From IMG/VR virus record IMGVR_UViG_3300044691_000566, positions 95,747 to 159,746 of that record: 64,000 bases of DNA. One strand, written 5' to 3'. A model generated the notes under the pieces. That model had not been told where the DNA came from and did not search any database. It saw only the letters and a list, made by a program, of their open reading frames with translations. Positions 5,291 through 53,614 of this stretch are shown one piece after another (position 1 is the stretch's first letter; every line of letters starts with the position of its first letter). Both the position numbers and the translations under genes were made by a program. The stretch is from a virus.

Positions 5291-5827
5291 TTAGCCCAAG
5301 TGGCCCCACCGGGCACCAGTGACGAGTCGGGAGATCGCGCCCTGGCCAACCCCGTAGACGGCGGCGAGAGCCCTCTGGCTTTCGCCGCCGTCGGCGTATC
5401 TGCGGCGTATCTCCAGAACCTGCCACTCCTCCAGCTTGGCGGCAGCGTTGCCTGACCCTCGTGAAGAGGTGCCGTGCAGGATCTTGTCAGCTTCGTTCTC
5501 CCCAGAAGTGCCCCAGACGAGGTTCTCCTGCCGGTTGTCCGTAGAGTCACCGTTCAGGTGGCGCCCCTCCTGGCCCGGCTCCGGAAGACCCACAAAGGCC
5601 CCCAGGACGAGCTGGTGGACCAGGCGCTGGGCTCGGACACCGTCGATCGACATCATGATGTTCAGGTAGCCCCCGCCGTGACGGCCGGGCTTGAGTATGC
5701 GGCCCTGGACGTAGTGCCGCCGGGTCTGGCGCGACAGACTGCGCACGCGGCCAAGCGACGACACCTCGTAGAACTCATCGAACTCCGGTATGGGGACCGG
5801 CTTCCACTCTTCAGTCATGCGAGGCAT
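5291..5827 (-). CDS. NUMOD4-HNH homing endonuclease
   Basis: EEWKPVP...YEVSSLGRVRS (NUMOD4) and VHQLVLGAF...RHLNGDSTDNRQENLVWGT (HNH_3), with a C-terminal HTH. Confidence 0.9.
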   Translation of the reverse strand: MPRMTEEWKPVPIPEFDEFYEVSSLGRVRSLSRQTRRHYVQGRILKPGRHGGGYLNIMMSIDGVRAQRLVHQLVLGAFVGLPEPGQEGRHLNGDSTDNRQENLVWGTSGENEADKILHGTSSRGSGNAAAKLEEWQVLEIRRRYADGGESQRALAAVYGVGQGAISRLVTGARWGHLG

Positions 5828-5866
5828 CTTGTAGTACAGGACTTGACATCGTCAACTCCAAACGAA

Positions 5867-5970
5867 GGCCCCCGGATTTAAAAATCCGGGGGCCGTTCCC
5901 CTGCCCAGCCATGCCACGCCCAGCCAAACCCCACCGTGCCGGGCCATACCATGAGGCCCTGACTCTATCA
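5867..5970 (-). ncRNA. GGY/NN repeat RNA unit A5 (candidate guide)
   Basis: TGATAGAGTCA leader; NN = AT AT CC AC GG TT TG GT AT TG AG; hairpin GGCCCCCGGATTTTTAAATCCGGGGGCC. Confidence 0.75.
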
Positions 5971-5982
5971 TCTCCAACGACT

Positions 5983-6078
5983 GAGGGGCTCCCCGTAGGA
6001 AGCCCCTCCCATGCCTTGCCACGCCGAACCGGGCCCTGCCTTGCCCTGCCAGGGCATGCCAGGGCCTTGACCCTGTCA
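5983..6078 (-). ncRNA. GGY/NN repeat RNA unit A4
   Basis: TTGACA-N17-CAGGGT; NN = CT AT CT AG AA AG CC TC GT AA AT (one GCC triplet); cUACGg hairpin. Confidence 0.75.
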
Positions 6079-6104
6079 TCTCCAATGGCACCTGTCAAAC
6101 GACT

Positions 6105-6207
6105 GAGGGCGCCACCCCGAAGGATGACGCCCTCCCATGCCCCGCCTGGCCCTGCCAGACCTCGCCACGCCGAGCCTCGCCCAGCCCCGCAAGACCTGAC
6201 TCTGTCA
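6105..6207 (-). ncRNA. GGY/NN repeat RNA unit A3
   Basis: TTGACA-N17-CAGAGT; NN = GG TG GA TC GT GA CT AG CA GG AT; cUUCGg hairpin. Confidence 0.75.
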
Positions 6208-6231
6208 TCCCTGCCCGCATCTGTCAAAGCT

Positions 6232-6324
6232 GAGGGCGATCACCCGTAGATGATCGCCCTCCCATGCCCTGCCCGGCCAAGCCGAGCCGCGCCATGCCTA
6301 GCCCTGCAAGACCTGACTCTATCA
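6232..6324 (-). ncRNA. GGY/NN repeat RNA unit A2
   Basis: TGATAGAGTCA; NN = AG TA AT GC TC TT CG AG AT; cUACGg hairpin. Confidence 0.75.
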
Positions 6325-6335
6325 GCCCCAATGAC

Positions 6336-6436
6336 GAAGGGGCCCGAAGGACCCCTTCTCCCTGCCCTGCCCGGCCTAGCCCCACCGCGCCAGACCTTGC
6401 CCAGCCGTGCCTAGCCACGCGGCCCTGACTCTATCA
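6336..6436 (-). ncRNA. GGY/NN repeat RNA unit A1
   Basis: TGATAGAGTCA, whose TGA is the upstream ORF's stop; NN = GT TA AC TG AA CT GC GG TA CG AG AG; cUUCGg hairpin. Confidence 0.75.
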
Positions 6437-6748
6437 GGACTTCTCCGGCGTCGGCTTGGGCGTGTGGATGCCGGTCTTCCGGACCCACCCGGCCTCGAAA
6501 TCCTCCACCTGGTCCTTCGTCCACATGCGGCCCATGCGCAGCACCCGCCAGGGCTGGCCCAGGCGCCCGGTGGCCAGCTCGTCGGCCCGCTGCTTGGTCA
6601 CGCCCCAGCGGTCGGCCAGCTCGGCGAGCCCGAAGACCTGCATGTCCTCCAGGAGTTCCGCCACCCGCTGGAGGACCACGTCCTCGGCCTGCTCGCTCAG
6701 GTGGTCGTCGAAGGTGGGGGTACCCGGGAGTTCACGCTGATCGTTCAT
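6434..6748 (-). CDS. small HTH DNA-binding protein (AlpA/excisionase-like)
   Basis: FGLAELADRWGVTKQRADEL...GRMWTKDQVEDF pattern; the start could instead be 6778. Confidence 0.7.
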   Translation of the reverse strand: MNDQRELPGTPTFDDHLSEQAEDVVLQRVAELLEDMQVFGLAELADRWGVTKQRADELATGRLGQPWRVLRMGRMWTKDQVEDFEAGWVRKTGIHTPKPTPEKS

Positions 6749-6902
6749 ACGTCCAGTGGAACACATACGCCTTGACATCGTCTACCCCATCGTGCCACGC
6801 TCCATCTGCACGAGAGGGCCTTGCTCCGCCCCCACGGACCCCGGTCCGTGGCCCCTCGTCGCCGAAAGACCCCGGCTCGGACCCCCTGGCCGGGGTCTTT
6901 CC

Positions 6903-6936
6903 TGTTGGACCGGCAGCGACTCCGCGTAAGGGACGA
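6903..6936 (+). promoter_or_regulatory. variant late-promoter motif TGTT-N20-TAAGGGACGA
   Basis: Same spacing as the other copies; upstream of gene 6962. Confidence 0.5.
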
Positions 6937-6961
6937 GAACCCCTCACGAACGGAGACCCCC

Positions 6962-7501
6962 ATGCCTGTCGGCGGAACGATCGTCGCGCGCAACCGGATG
7001 GACAGCATCACCGTCCTCGCCTCGGACATCAAGGGCACCCACTCGGTGGAGTGGGCCGCCTACAAGGACCCTTCCGGAGATGACATTCAGTTCATCCCCG
7101 AGGAGGTCCTGGCCTCCGTCGCCTTCAAGAAGGCCCTCGCCAGGGGCGTCGTGGAGCTGCTGGAGGACGAGTCCGACCCCGAGGTGGTGCTGGCCCTGGG
7201 CAAGCAGGTCGACGCGTTCAAGCGCCGCCAGGAGGGCGCCAAGGAGACCGCCGAGGCGCTGATCGAGAAGCCGACCACCCGGGACACCGTCCGCGCCTTC
7301 TGCGTCGGACCGGACACCCGGGGCACCGGTACCTGCGAGGAGGCGGTGGCCATCTCGGAGAAGCTCCTCAAGGACGTGCCGCCCCTCTGCACCCGTCACC
7401 AGAACCTCGCGCACCAGTACGTGCCCGAGGTCGACACCAAGGGCGACGAGACCAAGACGAAGTGGGTCCGGGTCATCATCGGGTCCCGCGAGCGTGACTG
7501 A
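6962..7501 (+). CDS. conserved head-region hypothetical protein (C-terminal Zn-binding motif)
   Basis: RBS GGAG; CVGP...TCE...LCTRH. Confidence 0.7.
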   Translation: MPVGGTIVARNRMDSITVLASDIKGTHSVEWAAYKDPSGDDIQFIPEEVLASVAFKKALARGVVELLEDESDPEVVLALGKQVDAFKRRQEGAKETAEALIEKPTTRDTVRAFCVGPDTRGTGTCEEAVAISEKLLKDVPPLCTRHQNLAHQYVPEVDTKGDETKTKWVRVIIGSRERD

Positions 7502-7514
7502 GAAGGGCGGACAG

Positions 7515-7859
7515 ATGACCGAGCAGGAGACCGGCCAGGTCCCCGAAGCCGTGGAGGACGACACCCCCGTGGCCTCCACGCACGTCCCGGACCCGACCGC
7601 CATGTCCGGCACCCTGGAGACCTCCGGGACCGGTGGGGGCCGCAACGAGCGCATCACCGGCACCACCAACATCTTCGGCCGGATCGAGCGGGACATCGTC
7701 GCGGTGCGCAACGTCGTCCTCAAGGACGGCGAACGCGTCGTGGAGACGGTCGAGCACGTCCTGCGCAAGGAGCCCGACCCGCAGGAGGACGCCGGGAAGG
7801 CGACGGCGGCCGACGGCAAGCAGGCCGGGAAGACCACCCCGGCCGCCAAGAAGAAGTAG
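7515..7859 (+). CDS. hypothetical virion protein
   Basis: Typical codon usage; SGTLETSG motif also echoed in the next gene. Confidence 0.65.
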   Translation: MTEQETGQVPEAVEDDTPVASTHVPDPTAMSGTLETSGTGGGRNERITGTTNIFGRIERDIVAVRNVVLKDGERVVETVEHVLRKEPDPQEDAGKATAADGKQAGKTTPAAKKK

Positions 7860-7883
7860 CCGAGCAGAGAGAGAGCAGCACCC

Positions 7884-9278
7884 ATGACGACACCGCCCGG
7901 ATACTCGGGGCAGGAGATCGACACCGAGGGCGTATACGGCAACGCGGGTGCTGCTCCTCGGGGTACCCAGAACCTGGTCTCCAACACGGAGACCGCCACC
8001 CCGGCCGGTGCCGCATACGGTGGCGGCGCCAACGTCGTGACCGGCGGCACCCTCACCGGCACCCCGGACACCGAGGGGATCGGCACGGGCGCCAACGGCC
8101 CGTACGTGCCCAACCCGCCGCCGCTGCTCACCGGCACCCTGGACACCCAGACCCTGGGCTGGCCGCTGACCTCCGGGGTCACCCAGGCGTACCGGGCCCC
8201 CAACACCACCATCGGCCTGGTCGGTGCGGCCGGTGCGTTCGACACCACCCGCACCGACACCCCGATCACCGACGGCTCGATCCGCAACGACTACCAGCAG
8301 AACCTGAGCGGCACCCTGGAGTCGGGCAACATCGGCGCCATCGGCCCCGTCAGTGCCCTCGTGCCGGTCGCCCCCTCCGGCACCCCCACGGTGGCCGCAG
8401 GCGCCCGTACCGCGACCGTGACGTGGTCCACGGTGGCCGACCCGGACGCCACGGCGCCCGTGCTCGGATACGTGATCATCGGCTCCACGGGCGGCACCAC
8501 GTACACGGGCCGGGGCGTCACCACCGCCGTGGTGACCAACCTGGTCCCCGACCTGCCGTACTCGTTCCAGGTGCTGGCCCGGAACCGCAACGGCAACGGC
8601 CCGCTGGGCACCGCCTCCGCCACGGTGACGCCGTACAACCCGGACGAGCCGGACGTCGGCAAGCCCGGCGGCCTGGACCCGTACTGGGCCCAGAACCCGA
8701 TCTACGGCCCCGACGGCACCGTGAAGGCGGGCTCGGGCCTCGCGGGACGCCCCGCCGCGCCCACGAGCGTCGTCCTGACCGGCAATGGCACCGTGGGCGG
8801 CGTGGTGGCCACCTGGGTTGCCCCGGCGACCGGCGGCACCGTGAGCAGCTACACCGTCACCCTGTCCTCGGGACAGACCAAGTCGGTGTCGGCCAGCACC
8901 CTGACGACCACCTTCACCGGGGTCGCCAACGCCACCGCGATCACCGCGACGGTCACCTCGGTGGGTTCGGTGGCCAACGCCACCTCCACGGCTTCGGCTG
9001 TCTTCGGCAAGCCCACGGCCCCGGCGGCTCCCACCGCCACCAGCCCGTCGGCGGGCACCATCCACGTGGTGTGGACCGCCCCGACTTCGGGCGCCCCGAT
9101 CAACTACATCGTCACCCTCGCCGGTCAGGACACCACCTCCCACACGGTGGCGGGCACCATCTTGACCAACGACTTCACCGCCCTGACCACCGGCCACGTC
9201 GACACCGTCACGGTGGGGGCGCAGGGGTCGGTGTCCACCACCACCTCGGCCGCCTCCGGCAACGTCACCGTCACCTGA
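7884..9278 (+). CDS. fibronectin type III repeat virion protein
   Basis: Three Fn3-like repeats (ATVTWS...YSFQVLARNRNGNG; VATWVAP...SYTVT; VVWTAP...NYIVT). Confidence 0.8.
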   Translation: MTTPPGYSGQEIDTEGVYGNAGAAPRGTQNLVSNTETATPAGAAYGGGANVVTGGTLTGTPDTEGIGTGANGPYVPNPPPLLTGTLDTQTLGWPLTSGVTQAYRAPNTTIGLVGAAGAFDTTRTDTPITDGSIRNDYQQNLSGTLESGNIGAIGPVSALVPVAPSGTPTVAAGARTATVTWSTVADPDATAPVLGYVIIGSTGGTTYTGRGVTTAVVTNLVPDLPYSFQVLARNRNGNGPLGTASATVTPYNPDEPDVGKPGGLDPYWAQNPIYGPDGTVKAGSGLAGRPAAPTSVVLTGNGTVGGVVATWVAPATGGTVSSYTVTLSSGQTKSVSASTLTTTFTGVANATAITATVTSVGSVANATSTASAVFGKPTAPAAPTATSPSAGTIHVVWTAPTSGAPINYIVTLAGQDTTSHTVAGTILTNDFTALTTGHVDTVTVGAQGSVSTTTSAASGNVTVT

Positions 9279-9286
9279 TCCGGCCG

Positions 9287-9321
9287 CGAGGAGCCCCGTA
9301 CACCGCGTACGGGGCTCCTCG
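9287..9321 (+). terminator. hairpin
   Basis: CGAGGAGCCCCGTAC-ACCGC-GTACGGGGCTCCTCG perfect stem. Confidence 0.6.
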
Positions 9322-9352
9322 TACCGCTGCCGGTCGTCGCATCATGCGGTCC

Positions 9353-9386
9353 TGTCGGGCGCCCCCGGTCCCCCCGGAAGGGTTGA
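9353..9386 (+). promoter_or_regulatory. late-promoter motif TGTC-N20-GAAGGGTTGA
   Basis: Motif copy. Confidence 0.65.
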
Positions 9387-9415
9387 AGGCCACCACCCAG
9401 CGGATCGGGAGCGGA

Positions 9416-10063
9416 ATGTCCACCACCAGCCAGCACGTGGGATACAAGATCCCGGATGGGTCGGACCCCTTCCTGCGGACCGACTTCGTCCAGAACCTCA
9501 ACCTCCAGGACCAGTACACGGGCGACTGGATCTGCACGAGCACCACCCGACCGGCCTGGGGCAGCGGCCAGGCGGGCATGAAGATCGTCGAGACGGACAC
9601 CCGCCGCACCCTGATGTGGACCGGCACCACGTTCCGGGAGATGCTCTACGGCCCCGCCGTCTGGTGGGGCTCCATCCGCCCCAACGCGACCATCTCCCAC
9701 GGCACGGTGGTGTCCTACACCGTCGGCACGTTCACCGTGAACCGCCCCGGCACGCTGCTCGGGTTCGCCAACACCGAGTACGCGATGCCCAACACCGGCT
9801 ACATCGGCGCCTCCACCCGCGTCACCATCGACGGCGCGGTGGCGAGCTGGGACACCTCCGGCGTCGACTTCATTGAGACCAACTTCCCCAGCGGCGGCAC
9901 CGACTTCTGGGGCGTCACCATCCCGGCCATGGGCGTCCGCAACATATCCGCCGGAACCCACTCGGTCGGCATCCAGATCCTGGGCACCGTCACCGGCACC
10001 AACACCCTCAAGATCGTCTCCAACCGCACGCTGGCCATGTTCGTCAACGCGACCGACCGCTAG
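9416..10063 (+). CDS. virion fibre-like protein
   Basis: RBS GGGAGCGG; CTSTTRP...GMKIVETDT motif typical of actinophage minor tail/fibre proteins. Confidence 0.65.
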   Translation: MSTTSQHVGYKIPDGSDPFLRTDFVQNLNLQDQYTGDWICTSTTRPAWGSGQAGMKIVETDTRRTLMWTGTTFREMLYGPAVWWGSIRPNATISHGTVVSYTVGTFTVNRPGTLLGFANTEYAMPNTGYIGASTRVTIDGAVASWDTSGVDFIETNFPSGGTDFWGVTIPAMGVRNISAGTHSVGIQILGTVTGTNTLKIVSNRTLAMFVNATDR

Positions 10064-10072
10064 GACCGCCAC

Positions 10073-10942
10073 ATGGCGCTCTTCTGGAACGACCGGCAGT
10101 ACGTCTCCCAGTACGCGGTGGACGTGGTGGGCATCCACCTGCTCCGCAACCAGGTCCCGGTGGACGCCGACTCCGGCGTCGCCCTCACCATGGTCTCGGA
10201 GAACACCGGCAGCGAGGTCTTCTCCCGCGCCGCCACCCACAACGCGACCGGCGACTACTCGGCGTCGTTCAACAGCGTGGAGACCTCTGTCCCCGGGTCC
10301 TACACGCTGGCGTGGACCTACGTCCTGACCGGGCAGCCGGAGTACCTGGAGTCCGGCATCGAGGTCGGCCCGGCTGCCCCCTCGTACGACAATCTCGCGC
10401 CGGGGATGAAGGACATCGTGGAGGGGGTCATGATCCGCATCGCGGACACCATCGACTCCCCGGGCGGTGGCCCGAATTTGTTGACATATGTCCAGAGCAA
10501 GTTCGGCCGGGGCCGGATCGCCGAGCTGATGCGGATCGCCCTGGGCCGCCTCAACACGGTCGCCCAGCCCCATCAGACCTACACCCTGGACGGCAATGGG
10601 GGCGCCACCTTCCCCTTCGCCCAGTGGGGTCCGCTGCTGGAGGCCGTGACCTGGGCGGAGACGCTCAAGCATCTGATCCGCAGCTACAACGAGCAGCCGA
10701 ACTTCATCGGCTCCGGCAACATCTCCCGCCTGGACCGCCGGGACTACGTCCAGCGCTGGCGCGACTCCCTCATGGACGAGGAGGCCGCGATCAAGGGGCA
10801 GCTCGATGTCTTCAAGATCGCGTCCATGGGCCTGGGCCGACCGGCTGTGCTGATTTTCGGGGGCGTCTATGGTCGGTACGGGCCCACTCGCATGTCGGGT
10901 AGCGTGGCCGCGCGGCCCCGTTACTGGACGAGATTCTACTAA
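10073..10942 (+). CDS. putative head-to-tail adaptor
   Basis: Position, and motifs LKHLIRSYNEQP and LDRRDY.QRW reminiscent of cluster C adaptors. Confidence 0.55.
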   Translation: MALFWNDRQYVSQYAVDVVGIHLLRNQVPVDADSGVALTMVSENTGSEVFSRAATHNATGDYSASFNSVETSVPGSYTLAWTYVLTGQPEYLESGIEVGPAAPSYDNLAPGMKDIVEGVMIRIADTIDSPGGGPNLLTYVQSKFGRGRIAELMRIALGRLNTVAQPHQTYTLDGNGGATFPFAQWGPLLEAVTWAETLKHLIRSYNEQPNFIGSGNISRLDRRDYVQRWRDSLMDEEAAIKGQLDVFKIASMGLGRPAVLIFGGVYGRYGPTRMSGSVAARPRYWTRFY

Positions 10943-10960
10943 AACCGGACATTACGGCCA

Positions 10961-11065
10961 TGATAGGGTCAGGTCCTGCAAGGCACGGCAGGGCTAGGCG
11001 AGGTCTGGCAGGGTACGGCTGGGCACGGCAGGGGGAGGGCGATCACCTACGGGTGGTCGCCCTCC
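10961..11065 (+). ncRNA. GGY/NN repeat RNA unit B1
   Basis: TGATAGGGTCA; NN = AA AC AG TA GA CT AG AC TG AC AG; cUACGg hairpin. Confidence 0.75.
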
Positions 11066-11089
11066 GTTGTTGACAGATCCAGTAGGACA

Positions 11090-11185
11090 TGACAGAGTCA
11101 AGTCGTCCTCATTCACCTGGGGCGGGCGTCGGTCGATCCGTGGTGCTCCCTTTCGCAACAAGGGCACGGATTGACCGACGTCTTT
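11090..11185 (+). ncRNA. non-repeat hairpin small RNA inside array B
   Basis: TTGACA-N17-CAGAGT leader, then an 18-bp stem GGCGTCGGTCGATCCGTG/CACGGATTGACCGACGTC with two G.U pairs and a TTT tail. Confidence 0.55.
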
Positions 11186-11204
11186 GTACTCCCGTCGGTA
11201 ACCC

Positions 11205-11288
11205 TGATAGAGTCAAGTCCTCGGCACGGCTAGGTAGGGCAGGGTTTGGTAGGGCAGGGAGAAGGGGTCCTCTACGGAGGACCCCTTC
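11205..11288 (+). ncRNA. GGY/NN repeat RNA unit B3
   Basis: TGATAGAGTCA; NN = TC AC TA AG AG TT AG AG; cUACGg hairpin followed by GTTTT. Confidence 0.75.
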
Positions 11289-11344
11289 GTTTTGCCCCCG
11301 CAGGCCCGGTAGAGTCCGGCCTCCACCGTCAGAGAGGACCCTCA

Positions 11345-11554
11345 ATGCCCGACAGCGAGATCATCAGGGACTGGTACACCTCCAGCGCCTGCGGGGCGAA
11401 CAACTCCTGCCTGGAGGCCCGCACTTACGCCGACGGGTCGGTCGAGATCCGCAACTCCCAGGACCCGAAGGGCACCCTCCTCCGGTTCACCGAGGACGAA
11501 TGGTCCGCCTTCCTCGTGGGCGCCCGCGCCGGGGAGTTTTCCACCGGGGCATGA
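11345..11554 (+). CDS. DUF397-family protein
   Basis: WYTSSACGANNSCLEA...VEIRNSQDP...LRFTEDEWSAFL matches the actinobacterial DUF397 consensus. Confidence 0.85.
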   Translation: MPDSEIIRDWYTSSACGANNSCLEARTYADGSVEIRNSQDPKGTLLRFTEDEWSAFLVGARAGEFSTGA

Positions 11555-11556
11555 CC

Positions 11557-11640
11557 TGATAGAGTCAAGTCCTCGGCTAGGCATGGCGGGGCTCGGCTTG
11601 GCACGGCAGGGAGAAGGGGTCCACTACGGTGGACCCCTTC
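11557..11640 (+). ncRNA. GGY/NN repeat RNA unit B4
   Basis: TGATAGAGTCA; NN = TC TA AT GG TC TT AC AG; cUACGg hairpin. Confidence 0.75.
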
Positions 11641-11656
11641 GTCGTTGGGAGGACGG

Positions 11657-11836
11657 ATGCGCATCGGTCAGGAGCCGCCCCGGCGGGAGAAGCTGCGGGG
11701 CTACGTGATCACCGGCTGCATCAAGTGCGGCGGCCGGTCCAAGTGGATCCGGCGTGGACCGCACGACTGCTGCTTGCGCAAGGACATGAGCCGGGCCCGG
11801 GAGAAGCAGGAATGGCGCCGGACCCTCAGGGATTGA
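11657..11836 (+). CDS. small basic Cys-rich protein (59 aa)
   Basis: RBS GGAGG; CIKC...HDCC; its stop is the TGA of the next leader. Confidence 0.6.
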   Translation: MRIGQEPPRREKLRGYVITGCIKCGGRSKWIRRGPHDCCLRKDMSRAREKQEWRRTLRD

Positions 11837-11932
11837 TAGAGTCAAGTCCCTGGCAAGGCTGGCCAAGGCCCGGTAGGGCACGGCTTGGCCCGGCAGGGCA
11901 GGGAGAAGAGCCCCACTACGGTGGGGCTCTTC
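11834..11932 (+). ncRNA. GGY/NN repeat RNA unit B5
   Basis: TGATAGAGTCA; NN = CT AA TG AA CC AG AC TT CC AG AG (one GCC triplet); cUACGg hairpin. Confidence 0.75.
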
Positions 11933-11956
11933 GTCGTTGACGGACCCCGCAGTTCA

Positions 11957-12070
11957 TGACAGAGTCAAGTCCTGCATGGCCGGGCGGGACGTGGCGCGGT
12001 GTGGCATGGCTAGGTAGGGCCGGGCAGGGCATGGGCTGTGGAGATGGGGCCTCTTTCGGGAGGCCCCATC
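11957..12070 (+). ncRNA. GGY/NN repeat RNA unit B6
   Basis: TTGACG-N17-CAGAGT; NN = AT CG GG GT GC GT AT TA AG CG AG AT (one GAC triplet); UUCG hairpin. Confidence 0.75.
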
Positions 12071-12074
12071 GTCT

Positions 12075-12172
12075 TGATAGAGTCAAGTCCCTGGCTGGGC
12101 TTGGTATGGCTGGGCTTGGCGTGGTGAGGCATGGCAGGGGGAGAGGGCCCGGATTTTTAAATCCGGGCCCTC
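12075..12172 (+). ncRNA. GGY/NN repeat RNA unit B7
   Basis: TGATAGAGTCA; NN = CT TG TT AT TG TT GT GA AT AG; hairpin GAGGGCCCGGATTTTTAAATCCGGGCCCTC. Confidence 0.75.
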
Positions 12173-12182
12173 CGCCATATGG

Positions 12183-12212
12183 TTGACACTCCAGGAATCC
12201 TTGGAGTACAGT
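12183..12212 (+). promoter_or_regulatory. sigma70/HrdB-type promoter with a palindromic operator in the spacer
   Basis: TTGACA-N18-TACAGT; spacer holds ACTCCAGGAATCCTTGGAGT. Confidence 0.7.
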
Positions 12213-12250
12213 CACCTTCGCCAGAGAACGCCGAGCCCCAGGGAGGGCCC

Positions 12251-12829
12251 ATGCAGGTCCGTTTGACTCTTACCGGAACCACATCGCTGCTCATGCACAA
12301 CGCGCGGCTGTCCGACCCGTTGGACCCCTACACCAAGATGCTCAAGGCCATCTCCTCCAAGCGCACCAAGACGGAGGACGACCACGACGACATGGCGCGC
12401 GTCGAATTCCTCGGCGGCCTGTACTTCGACCCGGAGGCCGGGCCGTACGTTCCCGGCGTCAACGTCCACCGCTGCCTGGTGGAGGGCGCCAAGCTCAACA
12501 AGCTGGGCCGCCACGTGGAGCGCGGCATCATCGCCCTGGACGAGATCTGCCCGCTGGGCTACGCGGGGCCGCGCACGGAGGAGGCGCTGTGGAAGGACAA
12601 AAACTTCGTCTCCCGGCTGTCCGTCGGCGTCACCACCTCGCGCGTCATGCGCACGCGCCCCGAATTCCCGGTGTGGGGCCTGGAGGCCGACATGCTGGTG
12701 GACACCGGCCAGCTCGACCTGGAGCAGGTCCGCACCATCGCCGAGAAGTCCGGACAGATGATCGGTCTCGGCGACTACCGTCCCCGGTTCGGGCGATTCA
12801 CCGTCGAGGTCGTCGAACTCCAGGGCTGA
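12251..12829 (+). CDS. stand-alone RAMP / Cas7-like RNA-binding protein (Vipr-like effector candidate)
   Basis: 192 aa; N-terminal strand VRLTLTGTTSLLMH, PYVPGVNVHRCL, RTRPEF..W and C-terminal G-rich loop IGLGDYRPRFGRFTV are RAMP hallmarks; adjacent to the GGY/NN array; RBS GGGAGG. Confidence 0.8.
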   Translation: MQVRLTLTGTTSLLMHNARLSDPLDPYTKMLKAISSKRTKTEDDHDDMARVEFLGGLYFDPEAGPYVPGVNVHRCLVEGAKLNKLGRHVERGIIALDEICPLGYAGPRTEEALWKDKNFVSRLSVGVTTSRVMRTRPEFPVWGLEADMLVDTGQLDLEQVRTIAEKSGQMIGLGDYRPRFGRFTVEVVELQG

Positions 12830-12868: not shown

Positions 12869-13432
12869 ATGGCCGCCAAGCCGTTCGAGCCCAAGGGCGA
12901 TGTCGCCCGCTGGGTCCCCGTCTACGAGAATCTGCGCGACCTGGAGCCGGGGGTGCTGGTCACGTACGAGCAGCTCTCGGAGTGGGCCGGAGTCGATGTC
13001 CGGCGCGACCGCAGCCCCCTCGTGCAGGCCGAGGACAAGCTCCTGAAGGAGCACGGGCGCGGCGTCGCCAACGAGCGGGGCGTGGGGTACCGGATCATGC
13101 TGGCCTCCGAACACGGTGAGGCCGCCCGGCGCCAGACCCGGAAGGCCGACCGCCGGATCAGGAAGGCCATAACCCTTCTGACCGTGGCCGACCGCAATCA
13201 CCTGACCCCGCAGCAGCGGCAGAAGTACGAGAGTCAGGCCGGGGCTCTCCAGGCCGTCCGGGACATGACCAACCGCCTGGCGCGGCGGACGGCCGCGCTG
13301 GAGGAGGGTCTGAAAGCGGTCCGTCGGGAGACCAAGGAGACCACGGCCGGTCTGTCCGACCGCTTGGAGCGGCTGGAGGCCCGGTTCGCGAACGTTCCGG
13401 GCGATGCCCCGGCGGACAGCACCACGACCTGA
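12869..13432 (+). CDS. winged-helix plus coiled-coil protein, co-transcribed with the RAMP gene
   Basis: VTYEQLSEWAG...NERGVGYRI wHTH-like N-terminus and long helical C-terminus; RBS GAAGGAGG. Confidence 0.7.
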   Translation: MAAKPFEPKGDVARWVPVYENLRDLEPGVLVTYEQLSEWAGVDVRRDRSPLVQAEDKLLKEHGRGVANERGVGYRIMLASEHGEAARRQTRKADRRIRKAITLLTVADRNHLTPQQRQKYESQAGALQAVRDMTNRLARRTAALEEGLKAVRRETKETTAGLSDRLERLEARFANVPGDAPADSTTT

Positions 13433-13507
13433 TAAGGTCACCCCCATCGGGATTTTAAAATCCCGCACAGACGACAGGCCCGTTCATGGGGAACGGGCCT
13501 GTCGTCA

Positions 13508-15338: not shown

Positions 15339-15424
15339 TGATAGAGTCAGGGCCTCGGTATGGCTGGGCCGGGCTCGGCTGGTCGGGGCATGGCAGGGGA
15401 GGCCCCCACTTCGGTGGGGGCCTC
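15339..15424 (+). ncRNA. dispersed GGY/NN repeat RNA unit C
   Basis: TGATAGAGTCA; NN = TC AT TG CG TC TG GG AT AG (one GTC triplet); cUUCGg hairpin. Confidence 0.7.
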
Positions 15425-46881: not shown

Positions 46882-46968
46882 GAAGAGGTCCTCCGTAGAG
46901 GACCTCTTCTCCCTGCCGTGCCTGGCCTCGCCTCGCCTAGCCATGCCCCGCAAGACCTGACTCTATCA
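46882..46968 (-). ncRNA. dispersed GGY/NN repeat RNA unit D
   Basis: TGATAGAGTCA; NN = GG AT TA GA GA CA AC AG; cUACGg hairpin. Confidence 0.7.
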
Positions 46969-47991: not shown

Positions 47992-48019
47992 CATGCCCGG
48001 GAACGAGAGGTCCAACAAC

Positions 48020-48121
48020 GAAGGGGACCACCCGGAGGTGGTCCCCTTCTCCCTGCCAAGCCAAGCCCCGCCACGCCATACCCTGCCGCGCCTCGCCATG
48101 CCTCAAGACCTGACTCTATCA
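48020..48121 (-). ncRNA. dispersed GGY/NN repeat RNA unit E
   Basis: TGATAGAGTCA; NN = GA AT GA GC AG AT GT GG TT TT AG; cUCCGg hairpin. Confidence 0.7.
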
Positions 48122-48344: not shown

Positions 48345-48514
48345 CAGCGGCTACCGCCCCGGACCTGTCCGGTGCCCTTGCAGGTGTCGCAGCGCTCGGA
48401 CTGGACGATGGTCTTGCCGTCTGTGTTCTGCCGCTCGACCATGTTGAAGCCCCGGCCCTCGCAGGATCCGCAGTCCTGGAAGACCTCGGATTTCTTGCCG
48501 CGTCTGAATCCCAT
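48344..48514 (-). CDS. small DnaJ-type CxxCxGxG zinc-finger protein (56 aa, absent from the ORF track)
   Basis: MGFRRGKKSEVFQDCGSCEGRG...RCDTCKGTGQV; RBS GAGGGGG; TGATG overlap with the next gene. Confidence 0.65.
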   Translation of the reverse strand: MGFRRGKKSEVFQDCGSCEGRGFNMVERQNTDGKTIVQSERCDTCKGTGQVRGGSR

Positions 48515-48537
48515 GTGTGCCCCCTCGGGCCTCGTCC

Positions 48538-48555
48538 GTGGACCTGACTCTATCA
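48538..48555 (-). promoter_or_regulatory. leader/promoter TGATAGAGTCAGGTCC without a GGY tract, upstream of the zinc-finger genes
   Basis: Same leader as the repeat units, followed directly by an RBS and ATG. Confidence 0.6.
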
Positions 48556-48585
48556 GGGCGTGTTGGTCGCGTCACGCAGAATGAC

Positions 48586-48686
48586 GAAGGGGCACCCCCG
48601 TAGAGGTGCCCCTTCTCCCTGCCGTGCCAAGCCCTACCCTGCCCTGCCATGCCAGGCCGAGCCATGCCAAGGACTTGACTCTATCA
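48586..48686 (-). ncRNA. dispersed GGY/NN repeat RNA unit G
   Basis: TGATAGAGTCA, whose TGA is the antirepressor stop; NN = TT AT TC CT AT AG AG AG TT AC AG; cUACGg hairpin. Confidence 0.7.
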
Positions 48687-49565
48687 GGACTTGCGCCCTA
48701 TCGGGATCACGTCGGCGTTGCGGTCCGGCACCGCGCTCAGGGCCGGGCGCTGCTGCTGCTGGCGCAGACGCTGCTGGATCCAGACCAAACCGTCCGGAGT
48801 CACCCTTATCTCCGCAAATCCGCTGGGATTGATCCGGAGCCGGAGATGGATCAGGTGCTCGCTGTACGGCACCGGCTGGCCGTCCCTGCGGCGGTAGACC
48901 ATGCGCACCTCCTCGATCCACCTGAACAGCCGTCCAGGCCCGGTGGAGATCCCCGGGTCCCGGTTGAGGATCGCGGCGGCCTCGGCCACCGAGCAGTCCC
49001 CTTGACCGGCCGCCAGGGCGTTCCACGCCTCCGCCGGAGGCCGCAGCTCCTCCACGAGCTGCTCGGCCCTCTGTTGGGCCTCCAGGGCATCCGCCCAGCC
49101 CCTCAGGGCCTCGGCATGGCTCGGCATCTGCGGAGCCGGGGGAGCAGGCGCGGGAGGGGCGTTCAGGGCCTCCTCGATGGCCTCCATACGCATGGTCTTG
49201 ACCACGAAGTACTGCTGGGCCAGGGCGATCTGGGATTTTTTCACGTCGCCGCTCATGGCGGCGAAATAGCACGCCGCCCGGGTCAGCCGGAAGTCCACGG
49301 AGGGGCGTCCGCCCTGGTCAGGGGTTTGTGTCGGTTTGCCGACATTAACCTCCGGGGTCCGCTTGATCAGCCGGAAGTGGTCCCGGACGTCGTACAGGGA
49401 GTCGGTGCTCATCGCGGTGCGGGCCTTGCCGATCACCCCGTTGAAGTGCCGCCACTGCGTGTATCCCATCAAACCGGCCAACTCCCGGGCGAACCAGTAC
49501 TCTCCGTCGTCGTCCACGTACTTGATCGTGTCGAAGGGGGATGACGCTCGTCTCTCAATTGCCAC
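48684..49565 (-). CDS. phage antirepressor (BRO-N/DinD-like N-terminus, KilA-C/ANT-like C-terminus)
   Basis: EYWFARELAGLMGYTQW, DFRLTRAACY, IALAQQYF; AEALRGWAD...SVAEAA...VTPDG. Confidence 0.85.
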   Translation of the reverse strand: MAIERRASSPFDTIKYVDDDGEYWFARELAGLMGYTQWRHFNGVIGKARTAMSTDSLYDVRDHFRLIKRTPEVNVGKPTQTPDQGGRPSVDFRLTRAACYFAAMSGDVKKSQIALAQQYFVVKTMRMEAIEEALNAPPAPAPPAPQMPSHAEALRGWADALEAQQRAEQLVEELRPPAEAWNALAAGQGDCSVAEAAAILNRDPGISTGPGRLFRWIEEVRMVYRRRDGQPVPYSEHLIHLRLRINPSGFAEIRVTPDGLVWIQQRLRQQQQRPALSAVPDRNADVIPIGRKS

Positions 49566-50947: not shown

Positions 50948-50977
50948 CTTCCACTCCAAGGATCCTTGGTGTAGTCT
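50948..50977 (+). promoter_or_regulatory. promoter with operator ACTCCAAGGATCCTTGGTGT
   Basis: Palindrome CCAAGGATCCTTGG followed by -10-like TAGTCT; homologous to the RAMP-gene promoter spacer. Confidence 0.6.
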
Positions 50978-50982
50978 GGTGC

Positions 50983-53145
50983 ATGCCAGAGAGCGACACC
51001 GAGGAGGGCCCTATGACCGTTGTGGACACCGTGACCCAGCTCCCGCACATACCCGAGAACTTCTCCGTCGTGGAGGGGGCCTTCGCCGCGCACCTGCCGG
51101 GCTACGAGCCCCGCAAGCCGCAGCAGGCCATGGCGAGCGCGATCGAGGTGGCCCTGGCCGACAGCAGGTCCCTCTACGTGCAGGCGGGCTGCGGTACCGG
51201 CAAGTCCCTCGGCGGCATGGTCCCCGCGCTCCTCCAGGCCCTGCACCAGAAGACCCGCCTCATCGTGGCCACGGCCACCAAGGCCCTCCAGGAGCAGTAC
51301 GCCAACAGCGACATTCCGTTCCTCCAGGAGCACTCCGGCATCCCCTTCACCTGGGCGCTGGTCAAGGGCCGCAGCAATTACACCTGCCAGGTCAAGCTGA
51401 ACAGCGACGACATGGAGCACGACGCCACCGCCCAGGCCGTCAAGGCCGAGCTGGCCGCCGACGAGGAGCACTCCGGCGACCGCGAGCACTTCGGTGTCCA
51501 GATCGACGACCTGGCCTGGCGGAAGCTCTCCAGCGGCAGCAGCGAGTGCCCGGGAAAATCCCAGTGCCCGTTCGGCGAGGTCTGCTACGCCGAGAAGGCC
51601 AAGAAGAAGGGCAACGAGTCCGACCTGGTGATCACCAACCAGGCGATGCTCGCCACCGACCTGGTCATCCGGGAGAAGACGCGGAGCGAGAACAGCGACG
51701 GCATCGCGATGCTCGGCGACTACGGCATCGTCCTCCTGGACGAGGGCCACGAGTGGCCGGAGATCGTGGCCAACACGCTGGGCAACGAGTTCACCCCGCG
51801 CGGGGTGCCCTTCCTCCTGCGGGACGCGCTGTCGTTCGTCTCCCTGCACGGCGGCAACGGGGACGACGAGAACCCTGCTGCGGCGGCCATGCAGCAGCGG
51901 GTCGACGAGTGCTCGAAGATCATGAACCAGCTCGACGAGCTGGCCCTCCCGCTGGTCGGCGAGGCCCTGACCCAGAGCTGGTTCGTCGACCACTACGGCC
52001 CCTTCGCGGACCTGAACGACCTGCTCAAGTCGGTCTACCTGGACCTGCGGGGCGTGAAGGTCCGCAACGACGTGGACCGCCAGCAGGGCAAGCTGAAGCT
52101 GCTGCTGACCCGCATCGAGAACACCCTCAAGGTCCTGGAGGAGCTGCTGTTCTCCGAGGACCACGAGCGCGTCCGCTGGGTCGATGGCTACAAGGTCCGC
52201 GAGGAGGACCACTGGCGCCTGAAGGTCGCGCCGGTCGACGTGGCCCCGTTCCTGACGAAGATGCTCTGGGAGGAGACCCCCACCATCGTGATGTCCGCGA
52301 CCCTGTCGGCGGGCAAGGACCGGAACGGCAACGCGGACTTCGGCTACATCAAGCGGACCTCGGGCCTGGAGGACGCCGGGACGGTGGACGTCGGCACCCC
52401 GTTCGACCTCCCGAAGCAGGCCCGCATGTTCGTGCCCGCCCCCACCCAGCCGTCCCCCAAGGAGTACGGCGCCTGGTCCGGCTACGCGATCCGGACGACC
52501 CTGGAACTGGTCGACGCCGCCAAGGGCGGGGCGCTGCTGCTCTACACGAGCCGCAAGGCGATGGAGGCCGCGCACGAGGACCTCAAGGACCGCCTGGAGG
52601 ACCGGGGGTTGACCGTGCTCATGCAGGGCGACGGCCGGAGCAACAAGGAGCTGGCGAAGATCTTCAAGGCGGACACCCACTCGGTGTTGTTCGCTCTGAA
52701 AAGTTTTTTCGTCGGAGTGGACGTCCCCGGTGACGCCTGCCGCCTGGTCATTGTGGACAAGCTGCCTTTTCCGGTCCCTTCCGACCCGATCTTCCAGGCG
52801 CGTGCCCTGGCCGAGGAGCGGGCCGGACGCCGGTCCTTTTCGACCCTGAGCATCCCGATGATGACCCTGTCGCTGGAGCAGGCCGTCGGCCGCCTGATCC
52901 GGACAAAGACCGACAAAGGCGTGGTTGCGATCTTGGACAGTCGCCTGACCAGCACCCCGTACGGCCGGGGCATCGTCACCGCCCTGCCGAACTTCCCGGT
53001 GACCACCAAGATCAGCGACGTCCAGGAGTTCTACGGCGGCCAGACGACTTCCGACCGCCCGGAGTCCACGCTCGCCGACCTGGCGGCCGGGCCCCAGGCG
53101 ACCGTGGGAGAGGTCACCACGGCTTGGAAGAACGGCCTCCGGTGA
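50983..53145 (+). CDS. dinG: DinG/YoaA-family helicase
   Basis: GYEPRKPQ, QAGCGTGKS, TATKALQEQ, KGRSNY.C, FeS cysteines, LDEGH, SATL, GVDVPG, DKLPF, QAVGRLIR. Confidence 0.9.
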   Translation: MPESDTEEGPMTVVDTVTQLPHIPENFSVVEGAFAAHLPGYEPRKPQQAMASAIEVALADSRSLYVQAGCGTGKSLGGMVPALLQALHQKTRLIVATATKALQEQYANSDIPFLQEHSGIPFTWALVKGRSNYTCQVKLNSDDMEHDATAQAVKAELAADEEHSGDREHFGVQIDDLAWRKLSSGSSECPGKSQCPFGEVCYAEKAKKKGNESDLVITNQAMLATDLVIREKTRSENSDGIAMLGDYGIVLLDEGHEWPEIVANTLGNEFTPRGVPFLLRDALSFVSLHGGNGDDENPAAAAMQQRVDECSKIMNQLDELALPLVGEALTQSWFVDHYGPFADLNDLLKSVYLDLRGVKVRNDVDRQQGKLKLLLTRIENTLKVLEELLFSEDHERVRWVDGYKVREEDHWRLKVAPVDVAPFLTKMLWEETPTIVMSATLSAGKDRNGNADFGYIKRTSGLEDAGTVDVGTPFDLPKQARMFVPAPTQPSPKEYGAWSGYAIRTTLELVDAAKGGALLLYTSRKAMEAAHEDLKDRLEDRGLTVLMQGDGRSNKELAKIFKADTHSVLFALKSFFVGVDVPGDACRLVIVDKLPFPVPSDPIFQARALAEERAGRRSFSTLSIPMMTLSLEQAVGRLIRTKTDKGVVAILDSRLTSTPYGRGIVTALPNFPVTTKISDVQEFYGGQTTSDRPESTLADLAAGPQATVGEVTTAWKNGLR

Positions 53146-53426
53146 CCCGGCCGGTGCTGTACTTCGTGCTCGCGTGCTCCCGGCACCAGTCCATGGACTG
53201 GTGCCGGGAGCACGACGTTCGCCCTCACCGGCCCGGGGTCTCCATCGATAATCGCGAGGAACCGGTGGCGCTCCACGTCACAGACATCCAGCGGCTCCGG
53301 GGCCTCCAGGGGTCCGGCCCCATTGAGGTCGTCACGACGGGGAACTGGTATCACCTCCGGGCTTCCGGAGAACTGCTGGAGGTCGCCGAGCGCATTGCCC
53401 AGGTCGCCAACGAGGACAGGTCCTGA
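53142..53426 (+). CDS. hypothetical protein
   Basis: GTGA overlap with the dinG stop; its stop is the TGA of the next leader. Confidence 0.55.
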   Translation: MTRPVLYFVLACSRHQSMDWCREHDVRPHRPGVSIDNREEPVALHVTDIQRLRGLQGSGPIEVVTTGNWYHLRASGELLEVAERIAQVANEDRS

Positions 53427-53532
53427 TAGAGTCAGGACTACATGGTGCGGCTTGGCCTGGTGAGGCGTGGCTAGGCAGGGCAAGGCATGGGTATGGACAG
53501 TGGCTCTCCTCCGGATGGGGGAGAGCCACTGT
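53424..53532 (+). ncRNA. dispersed GGY/NN repeat RNA unit H
   Basis: TGATAGAGTCA; NN = AT GC TT CT GA GT TA AG AA AT; hairpin ACAGTGGCTCTCC...GGAGAGCCACTGT. Confidence 0.7.
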
Positions 53533-53545
53533 TGCGTTTTGGGGG

Positions 53546-53574
53546 TAGAAATACTCCAAGGATTCTTGTAGCAT
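53546..53574 (+). promoter_or_regulatory. promoter with operator ACTCCAAGGATTCTTG
   Basis: TAGAAA-N17-TAGCAT containing the third operator copy. Confidence 0.55.
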
Positions 53575-53614
53575 GGCGTCTAACGCCAGAGATCGTTACC
53601 ACCAGGAGGCACCG

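Follow-up and report, generated by a model that had tools for sequence, protein, structure and literature searches.

The guide RNAs of a VIPR system, a type of phage RNA-guided DNA-silencing system, appear to be encoded in IMG/VR virus record IMGVR_UViG_3300044691_000566 as separate minigenes, each with its own host-type promoter in a short conserved leader and with a closing hairpin, a reading to which we assign a probability of about 0.7. The window, that is, the whole stretch of DNA that was analyzed, comprises the last 64 kb (positions 95,747 to 159,746) of this 159,746-bp record, which has direct terminal repeats and 67% G+C. The closest cultured relative, judged by a tail protein, was Streptomyces phage Frankenweenie with 46% identity, in which the pentamer tracts typical of the guides were not found.

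In the proposed mechanism, the leader would act as a promoter of the HrdB/sigma-70 class used by the host, mostly as an extended -10 element TGnTAGAGT without a -35 box, and units with C instead of T at -12 would rely on a consensus -35 box 17 nt upstream. Transcription would start about 7 nt after the hexamer, 0 to 3 nt before the first YNNGG repeat, and the primary transcript would already be the guide, with 8 to 14 pentamers and a GC-rich UNCG-capped hairpin in 69 to 99 nt. The hairpin would cap the Vipr filament and also stop or pause the polymerase, and a putative dimeric regulator would probably control the guides and the early genes jointly via a shared 19-bp palindrome. Promoter activity, start site, termination, and operator binding are what we infer here from the sequence.

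The open reading frame (ORF) at 12251-12829 matched the SUSP1 Vipr protein (36pp_D) over residues 4-188 of 192 in a phmmer search of PDB, with an E value of 4.6e-40. VIPR was described in 2026 preprints (bioRxiv 10.64898/2026.04.26.720920 and 10.64898/2026.04.26.720927), in which the guide RNA, vrRNA, has 9 to 16 YNNGG repeats, in which GGY is conserved and NN varies, followed by a structured 3' tail, in about 100 nt. The Vipr homology and this GGY/NN architecture together identify the locus as VIPR, and the repeat units, correctly called guides in the original prediction, are on these grounds assigned as vrRNA genes of a type II-like system of an already published kind. A genome scan for GG at a 5-nt period found 20 GGY-NN units spread over 100 kb, 16 of them in the window, where two tandem arrays were examined (five units at 5864-6436 on the minus strand and seven at 10961-12173 on the plus strand). 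Each unit consists of the leader TGAYANNGTCA continued by (A/G)G(T/G)CC, 8 to 14 in-phase GGY-NN pentamers with an NN string that differs in each of the 20 tracts, and a GC-rich hairpin immediately 3' of the last pentamer. This hairpin caps the repeat tract in every unit in place of the SUSP1 pseudoknot, and its stems differ in sequence with the pairing kept. The exact motif TGAYAGRGTCA occurred 18 times in the window and 26 times in the whole genome, compared to 2.8±1.9 copies in the shuffled window even with up to one mismatch allowed, and each of the 20 tracts in the genome follows either this motif or a variant with TATAGT, TAAAGT, or TACAGT.

Extended -10 (TGn) promoters are known from bacteria, including actinobacteria, and in them a TG one base upstream of the hexamer substitutes for an absent -35 box. 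The leader had been read as TGn plus a -10 box, and indeed all 16 units of the window begin with TGAYANNGTCA, readable as TGn followed by TANNNT. Four leaders carry C at -12 (C-variants at 6078, 6207, 11090, and 11957, with hexamers 6075-6070 and 6204-6199 on the minus strand and 11093-11098 and 11960-11965 on the plus strand), and each of them has TTGACA or TTGACG at exactly 17-nt spacing, just at the positions that had been predicted. Among the 18 leaders in the genome with T at -12, the best match to the -35 box was at most 4/6 with spacers of 16 to 18 nt (Fisher p = 1.4e-4 versus the C-variants); those at 10961 and 11205, previously noted as lacking the box, matched it at 2/6 and 3/6 positions. 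The 14-nt spacers of the four C-variants were 36 to 64% alike and their boxes 88 to 100% alike, and such divergence of the spacers with boxes and spacing kept suggests that the box has been maintained and is not the result of a simple recent duplication. In relatives, a C-variant leader of L183 has TTGACA at 17 nt, and a leader of L058 without the TG has TTGACA at 18 nt. In this genome and the relatives together, a -35 box accompanied 6/6 weakened leaders versus 1/30 intact ones (Fisher p = 3.6e-6). A scan of 5800-12300 for promoters of the E. coli type returned only the vipr promoter, CAGAGT lying below its hexamer threshold and the T-variants having no -35 box.

Conservation was analyzed in 35 leaders from nine phage contigs, namely, this genome and eight related IMG/VR contigs; the leaders were picked for at most two mismatches to the motif, which makes the test lenient. 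The contigs were recovered via the guide tail and via Vipr, not via the leader, and a scan of IMG/VR with the exact leader gave single chance matches only. The bases -11A and -7T were kept in 35/35 leaders, -12 was T in 31 and C in 4, and TG at -15/-14 was present in 34/35, with the sole exception carrying a -35 box instead. The inner three bases of the hexamer varied among leaders (TAGCAT, TAGAAT, TAAAGT, TAGTGT, and TACCGT). TANNNT is the motif at 80% of Streptomyces coelicolor start sites (PMC4895711), and the conservation pattern of the leaders has this signature. The first YNNGG repeat began 0 to 3 nt after the position lying 7 nt downstream of the hexamer in 20/20 units, and the predicted transcripts are 69 to 99 nt long; a primary transcript would thus already begin at the guide. 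Quite unlikely, in our view, is a promoter read through phage-directed specificity, by a sigma-like or appropriator protein and not by the host housekeeping holoenzyme alone, with the conserved flanks as the site of that factor. Conservation does extend well past the -10 box, to the palindrome around it and the stretch GTCA R G K C C T, and together with these flanks the unusually conserved 18-nt spacer of the early promoters suggests extra protein contacts, but a search of the phage genome for sigma-70 region 2 found no such gene, and hexamers and spacings match the host consensus, including the textbook trade-off between the -35 box and the extended -10 element.

The motif TGNTANNNT was found in 23 copies in the genome, all of them intergenic, and was absent from both strands of the called coding sequence (130 kb), whereas 28±5 copies, and never fewer than 17, were present in genes after codon shuffling. 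In coding DNA, the controls TGNTANNNC and TGNTANNNG reached 0.94 and 0.99 of expectation. TANNNT itself was 3.5-fold depleted in genes (130 observed versus 453±22 in codon shuffles, a ratio of 0.29), whereas TANNNC and TANNNG were not depleted, which points to strong genome-wide selection against -10-like hexamers in coding DNA. Guide-type leaders account for 19 of the 23 copies of TGNTANNNT, and of the remaining four at least two precede mRNAs; evidently, to judge from this distribution, the phage cannot tolerate the motif where transcription should not start. Its full purging from genes may serve as a useful general pointer to the motif that is actually read by the host polymerase.

Three units, at genome positions 71398, 72649, and 90379, are antisense to both flanking genes and therefore cannot be excised from the mRNA of a neighbor; the leader is the only upstream element common to them. 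One of the three fills the gap from the end of a convergent gene for dCTP deaminase (Pfam E 2e-42) to the start codon, ATG, of the plus-strand gene that comes next. Ahead of a 56-aa zinc-finger-like gene, with its ribosome-binding site and ATG, stands the guide-type leader at 48555. In three relatives, a -10-type leader is missing solely from units that follow vap immediately and in the same orientation, a position in which the vipr-vap transcript can supply them. The units and neighboring elements of the window are as follows.

5864..5970, minus strand: vrRNA unit with leader TGATAGAGTCA at 5970-5960, 11 GG pentamers, and an AT-rich terminator hairpin with T-run; last of the minus-strand array.
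5983..6098, minus strand: vrRNA unit with full predicted promoter, -35 TTGACA at 6098-6093, 17-nt spacer, TGA-CAGGGT at 6078-6070, pentamers, and UACG hairpin.
6105..6227, minus strand: vrRNA unit with full predicted promoter, -35 TTGACA at 6227-6222, 17-nt spacer, TGA-CAGAGT at 6207-6199, 13 pentamers, and UUCG hairpin.
6232..6324, minus strand: vrRNA unit with extended -10 leader TGATAGAGT, without -35 box, and UACG hairpin.
6336..6436, minus strand: vrRNA unit, first of the minus-strand array; the leader TGA is the stop of the 114-aa gene 6434-6778; UUCG-type hairpin.
10961..11065, plus strand: vrRNA unit, first of the plus-strand array, with leader TGATAGGGTCA, 13 pentamers, and UACG hairpin.
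11070..11204, plus strand: non-guide unit with -35 TTGACA at 11070-11075, 17-nt spacer, TGA-CAGAGT at 11090-11098, and a 104-nt long-hairpin RNA without GGY tract.
11205..11288, plus strand: vrRNA unit with extended -10 leader, 8 pentamers, and UACG hairpin.
11557..11643, plus strand: vrRNA unit directly 3' of a 68-aa ORF, with extended -10 leader and UACG hairpin.
11834..11935, plus strand: vrRNA unit whose leader TGA terminates the upstream small ORF; UACG hairpin.
11937..12070, plus strand: vrRNA unit with full predicted promoter, -35 TTGACG at 11937-11942, 17-nt spacer, TGA-CAGAGT at 11957-11965, and UUCG hairpin at 12043-12070.
12075..12173, plus strand: vrRNA unit, last of the plus-strand array, with extended -10 leader and AT-rich terminator-type hairpin.
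12183..12212, plus strand: predicted vipr promoter of the phage's standard type, TTGACA, conserved 18-nt spacer, and TACAGT.
12251..12829, plus strand: vipr gene for a 192-aa RAMP protein.
12869..13432, plus strand: vap-like accessory gene, 187 aa, whose stop is the TGA of the 'empty' leader TGATAAGGTCA at 13430-13440.
15339..15424, plus strand: solitary vrRNA unit 3' of a minor-tail-like gene, with extended -10 leader and UUCG hairpin.
46882..46968, minus strand: solitary vrRNA unit with extended -10 leader and UACG hairpin.
48017..48121, minus strand: solitary vrRNA unit with extended -10 leader and UCCG hairpin.
48347..48555, minus strand: guide-type leader at 48555-48545 as putative mRNA promoter, then a ribosome-binding site and the 56-aa zinc-finger-like ORF with its ATG.
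48583..48686, minus strand: vrRNA unit whose leader TGA is the stop of the antirepressor-like gene 48684-49565; UACG hairpin.
53424..53533, plus strand: vrRNA unit with its leader within a perfect 19-bp palindrome, the TGA ending the upstream gene; long hairpin without UNCG loop.
12183-12212, 50954-50990, and 53554-53590: predicted standard promoters in the window, of the type TTGACN, CTCCAACAATCCTTGGAG spacer, and TAGNNT.

The TGA of five leaders doubles as the stop codon of the gene before them (6434-6436, 11834-11836, 13430-13432, 48684-48686, and 53424-53426), so that the guide cassettes adjoin gene ends without spacing. A correction concerns the leader at 11090, which is followed by the 104-nt hairpin RNA and not by a GGY tract.

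The leader lies in a 19-bp palindrome, GTCYTGAY-N3-GTCARGAC, with 29 genomic sites, nearly all intergenic, versus 0 to 2 in Markov controls. The standard early promoter of the phage on the plus strand consists of TTGACN, a conserved 18-nt spacer, and TAGTCT, and at least 12 early promoters carry TGAC-N3-GTCA with matching outer arms directly after the -10 box. The center of the palindrome is freely variable at these early promoters, where the half-site ends in C, and is fixed to the -10 pattern in the guide leaders, where the half-site mostly ends in T to give TANNNT. The arms of the leader showed no covariation beyond column composition (all p > 0.07), a pattern that fits protein binding and speaks against a hairpin in the RNA. 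Overall, the palindrome looks like a putative operator of a dimeric regulator, and the proposal that the leader doubles as an operator is supported by the presence of the same palindrome at the early promoters. Outside the window, about nine TGAC-N3-GTCA sites stand inverted just after early-promoter -10 boxes without a -35 box of their own, and the rule that ties the C-variant to the -35 box is thus limited to guide-type leaders. The possibility that C at -12 restores a better operator was considered and rejected: with 3 to 4 mismatches, the C-variants match the 19-bp palindrome no better, because their left arm is occupied by the promoter spacer.

Should the leader be only a protein-binding or recombination site, such as an operator or the boundary of a cassette in guide copying, transcription would have to come from elsewhere, and we regard this as very unlikely. 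It would agree with the 19-bp palindrome held in common with the early-promoter operators, with units scattered at gene ends like cassettes, with a NUMOD4-HNH gene flanking one array, and with the 'empty' leader without a guide behind vap. It does not account for the center that is free at early promoters but fixed to TANNNT in leaders, and it leaves unexplained the -35 compensation, the antisense units without another promoter, and the purging of the motif. If the palindrome binds a regulator on top of promoter function, the promoter, guide, and hairpin would form a portable cassette, free to sit anywhere in the genome and even antisense to adjacent genes, for autonomous yet gated guide expression, in which one dimeric regulator would switch the whole repertoire together with the early genes; we offer this extension of the promoter-per-guide reading tentatively and consider it doubtful as it stands. 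A regulatory circuit for VIPR guides would, if this is true, be described for the first time.

UNCG loops were present on this strand only in 12 clear cases and one ambiguous case (the 6436 unit) of 16 hairpins, the exceptions being the units at 5970, 12075, and 53424; of the 13 loops originally counted, 12 are therefore certain. A terminator scan of 5800-12300 for a GC-rich hairpin with T-run was passed only by the last unit of the minus-strand array. Inner hairpins may nevertheless pause or partly stop the polymerase.

Several observations weigh against the promoter-per-guide reading. The inner hairpins have no T-runs and end in CTTCGTC-type tails instead, an AT-rich terminator is found only at the last unit of each array, and read-through transcripts are likely, to judge by these ends, alongside unit-length ones, which makes a polycistronic RNA plausible. 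Downstream of the hexamer, GTCA R G K C C T is conserved beyond the needs of a plain promoter, and most units have a pyrimidine, not the preferred start base, at the predicted +1. The leaderless units of relatives indicate that the family is able to form guide 5' ends without a private promoter. In 171 vrRNA units of other VIPR lineages, all without another tract before them, no clear -10 enrichment was seen (TANNNT at -16/-15 occurred about 10 times versus 4 expected and is at most weakly enriched), and the promoter-per-guide design is on this comparison specific to this lineage. Finally, the putative host of this soil actinophage, a high-GC actinobacterium, is assigned from just the GC content and the 46%-identical Streptomyces phage tail protein.

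Some of these observations would suit a long precursor, transcribed per array or per guide together with the upstream gene, in which the leader marks the RNA for processing by a short hairpin with the loop UAGAG, mature guides arise by cutting or by 5'-to-3' trimming back to the Vipr-protected tract, and the likeness to a promoter is secondary. Besides the absence of T-runs from inner hairpins and the confinement of the standard terminator to the last unit of each array, this agrees with most solitary units lying directly behind same-strand genes, five of them sharing the stop codon of the gene, with leader arms that are palindromic over up to 9 bp in relatives, with the leaderless or degenerate-leader units behind vap, which must be processed or trimmed, and with the ribozymes or tRNA-like punctuation of other VIPR lineages. 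An RNA hairpin, however, would leave unexplained why each C-variant has its -35 box at exactly 17 nt and why TGNTANNNT is absent from genes; the arms do not covary beyond column composition, the never-varying bases match the TANNNT pattern and not the stem, and three units are antisense to both neighbors. We therefore regard a precursor as unlikely. The claim that each unit has its own promoter accordingly stands on the -35 compensation, the motif purging, the antisense units, the use of the leader before a protein gene, and the restriction of leaderless units to the position behind vap, whereas the claim that guides are independent 70- to 110-nt host-polymerase transcripts without any processing is weakened by the inner hairpins without T-runs and by the promoter-less units behind vap in three relatives.

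In comparison to type II VIPR of Escherichia phage SUSP1 and a Pseudomonas fulva prophage, Vipr is homologous over its full length, with a candidate vap gene adjoining, and the guides share 8 to 14 GGY-NN pentamers and a structured 3' tail in about 70 to 100 nt, in arrays and solo copies on a phage genome. The system described here differs in a plain GC hairpin with UNCG loop in place of the pseudoknot, a high-GC actinobacterial host as inferred, and about 20 guides over 100 kb, three of them antisense to neighbors and each with a recognizable predicted host-type promoter in an operator-like palindrome. In the SUSP1-like Felix O1-type Escherichia phage wV8 (L068), each vrRNA follows the same leader of about 30 nt and its tail is followed by a T-run, without clear sigma-70 boxes; this leader consists of two GGTCTTT repeats ending in TTTAAT(A/G)A (L068 3790-3830, 5055-5090, and 5185-5220) and is in part annotated as repeat DR_4. 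Mycobacterium phage LittleE (L066) and Gordonia phages Trine (L065) and MakoManhole (L064) encode Vipr homologs of 47 to 56% identity, annotated as hypothetical in GenBank, and GGY-NN guides, but these guides are separated by tRNA T-arm-like GGTTCGA elements, whereas the separator in the present phage is the putative promoter. VIPR arrays punctuated by ribozymes or tRNA-like elements are shown in fig. S19 of bioRxiv 10.64898/2026.04.26.720920, and the processed vrRNA forms named in the VIPR preprints are ribozyme-interspersed and staggered arrays. Such separators, T-arm-like or hammerhead-ribozyme, imply by their sequence that a precursor is cut in those lineages. vrRNA promoters and the biogenesis of type II vrRNA are not addressed in the VIPR preprints consulted (bioRxiv 10.64898/2026.04.26.720920 and 10.64898/2026.04.26.720927).

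The type II-C CRISPR array is, by analogy of design and not by membership, the closest functional analog. In Neisseria meningitidis and Campylobacter jejuni, crRNAs arise from repeat-internal promoters without the need for RNase III (Zhang et al. 2013, as summarized in PMC5965381). There, as predicted for the present phage, each guide has a promoter of its own, placed in a conserved element before the variable part, and its production is independent of an endonuclease; type II-C CRISPR differs by Cas9, tracrRNA, contiguous spacers, the location of the promoter inside the repeat, and the lack, in the account given there, of per-guide terminators. Like extended -10 bacterial promoters, the leader has TGn before TANNNT without a -35 box, and where the hexamer is weakened, a -35 box stands at 17 nt; unlike them, its box is embedded in a 19-bp palindrome, and its start site is a predicted one.

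The system itself is known; what is new here, and well supported by the sequence comparisons, is the predicted promoter-per-guide minigene design, the trade-off between the -35 box and the extended -10 element, and the embedding in a putative phage-wide operator. The design suggests a third, nuclease-free route of guide making, with one host-type promoter and one hairpin per guide. If confirmed, it would explain how the phage scatters about 20 guides across its genome, provide a minimal, portable cassette with which programmable vrRNAs could be expressed in high-GC actinobacteria, and point to the regulator site that times guide expression.

Searches of the window with Rfam gave no family at gathering scores, and only chance-level matches at E ≤ 1 in 10900-12300, and ARAGORN found no tRNAs in the window. 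No match to 5800-12300 was obtained by megablast among GenBank phages, contigs of two soil metagenomes aligned to the region as short fragments only and were uninformative on leaders, and no literature on pentanucleotide repeats in Streptomyces phages was found. Among public sequencing runs, none of RNA was listed as containing this phage.

The minus-strand array is flanked by the NUMOD4-HNH endonuclease gene at 5291-5827 on the minus strand (Pfam E 1e-13) and by the 114-aa gene at 6434-6778 on the minus strand, which has no Pfam match; both genes lie inside a plus-strand structural region. The 104-nt RNA inside the plus-strand guide array (11101-11204) forms a long interrupted hairpin (-46.5 kcal/mol, z = -3.5) and has no Rfam match. 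The 187-aa vap-like gene begins 39 nt downstream of vipr, is syntenic in relatives L058 and L062, and has no significant Pfam match. Behind it, the 'empty' leader TGATAAGGTCA (13430-13470, plus strand) is followed directly by an AT-rich terminator with no guide, and in three relatives a leaderless guide occupies this position.

The AT-rich palindromic hairpin of the CCGGATTTTTAAATCCGG type recurs at 5864-5898, 12141-12173, and 13450-13470, with equivalents in L062 and L058, and would be the standard, probably bidirectional, terminator of the phage. The order guide, terminator, and vipr promoter was kept in relatives. The spacer CTCCAACAATCCTTGGAG of the standard promoter is itself an 18-nt palindrome with 37 matches over both strands and is followed by TAGNNT; standard promoters, which occur genome-wide, continue with TGAC-N3-GTCA or a leader of the CGCCAGAGA type, after which come the ribosome-binding site and the ATG. 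The hairpin of one antisense guide (L214 2556-2588; genome 72555-72587) lies 34 nt past the stop of the convergent dCTP deaminase gene and, from this placement, could act as the terminator of that gene too.

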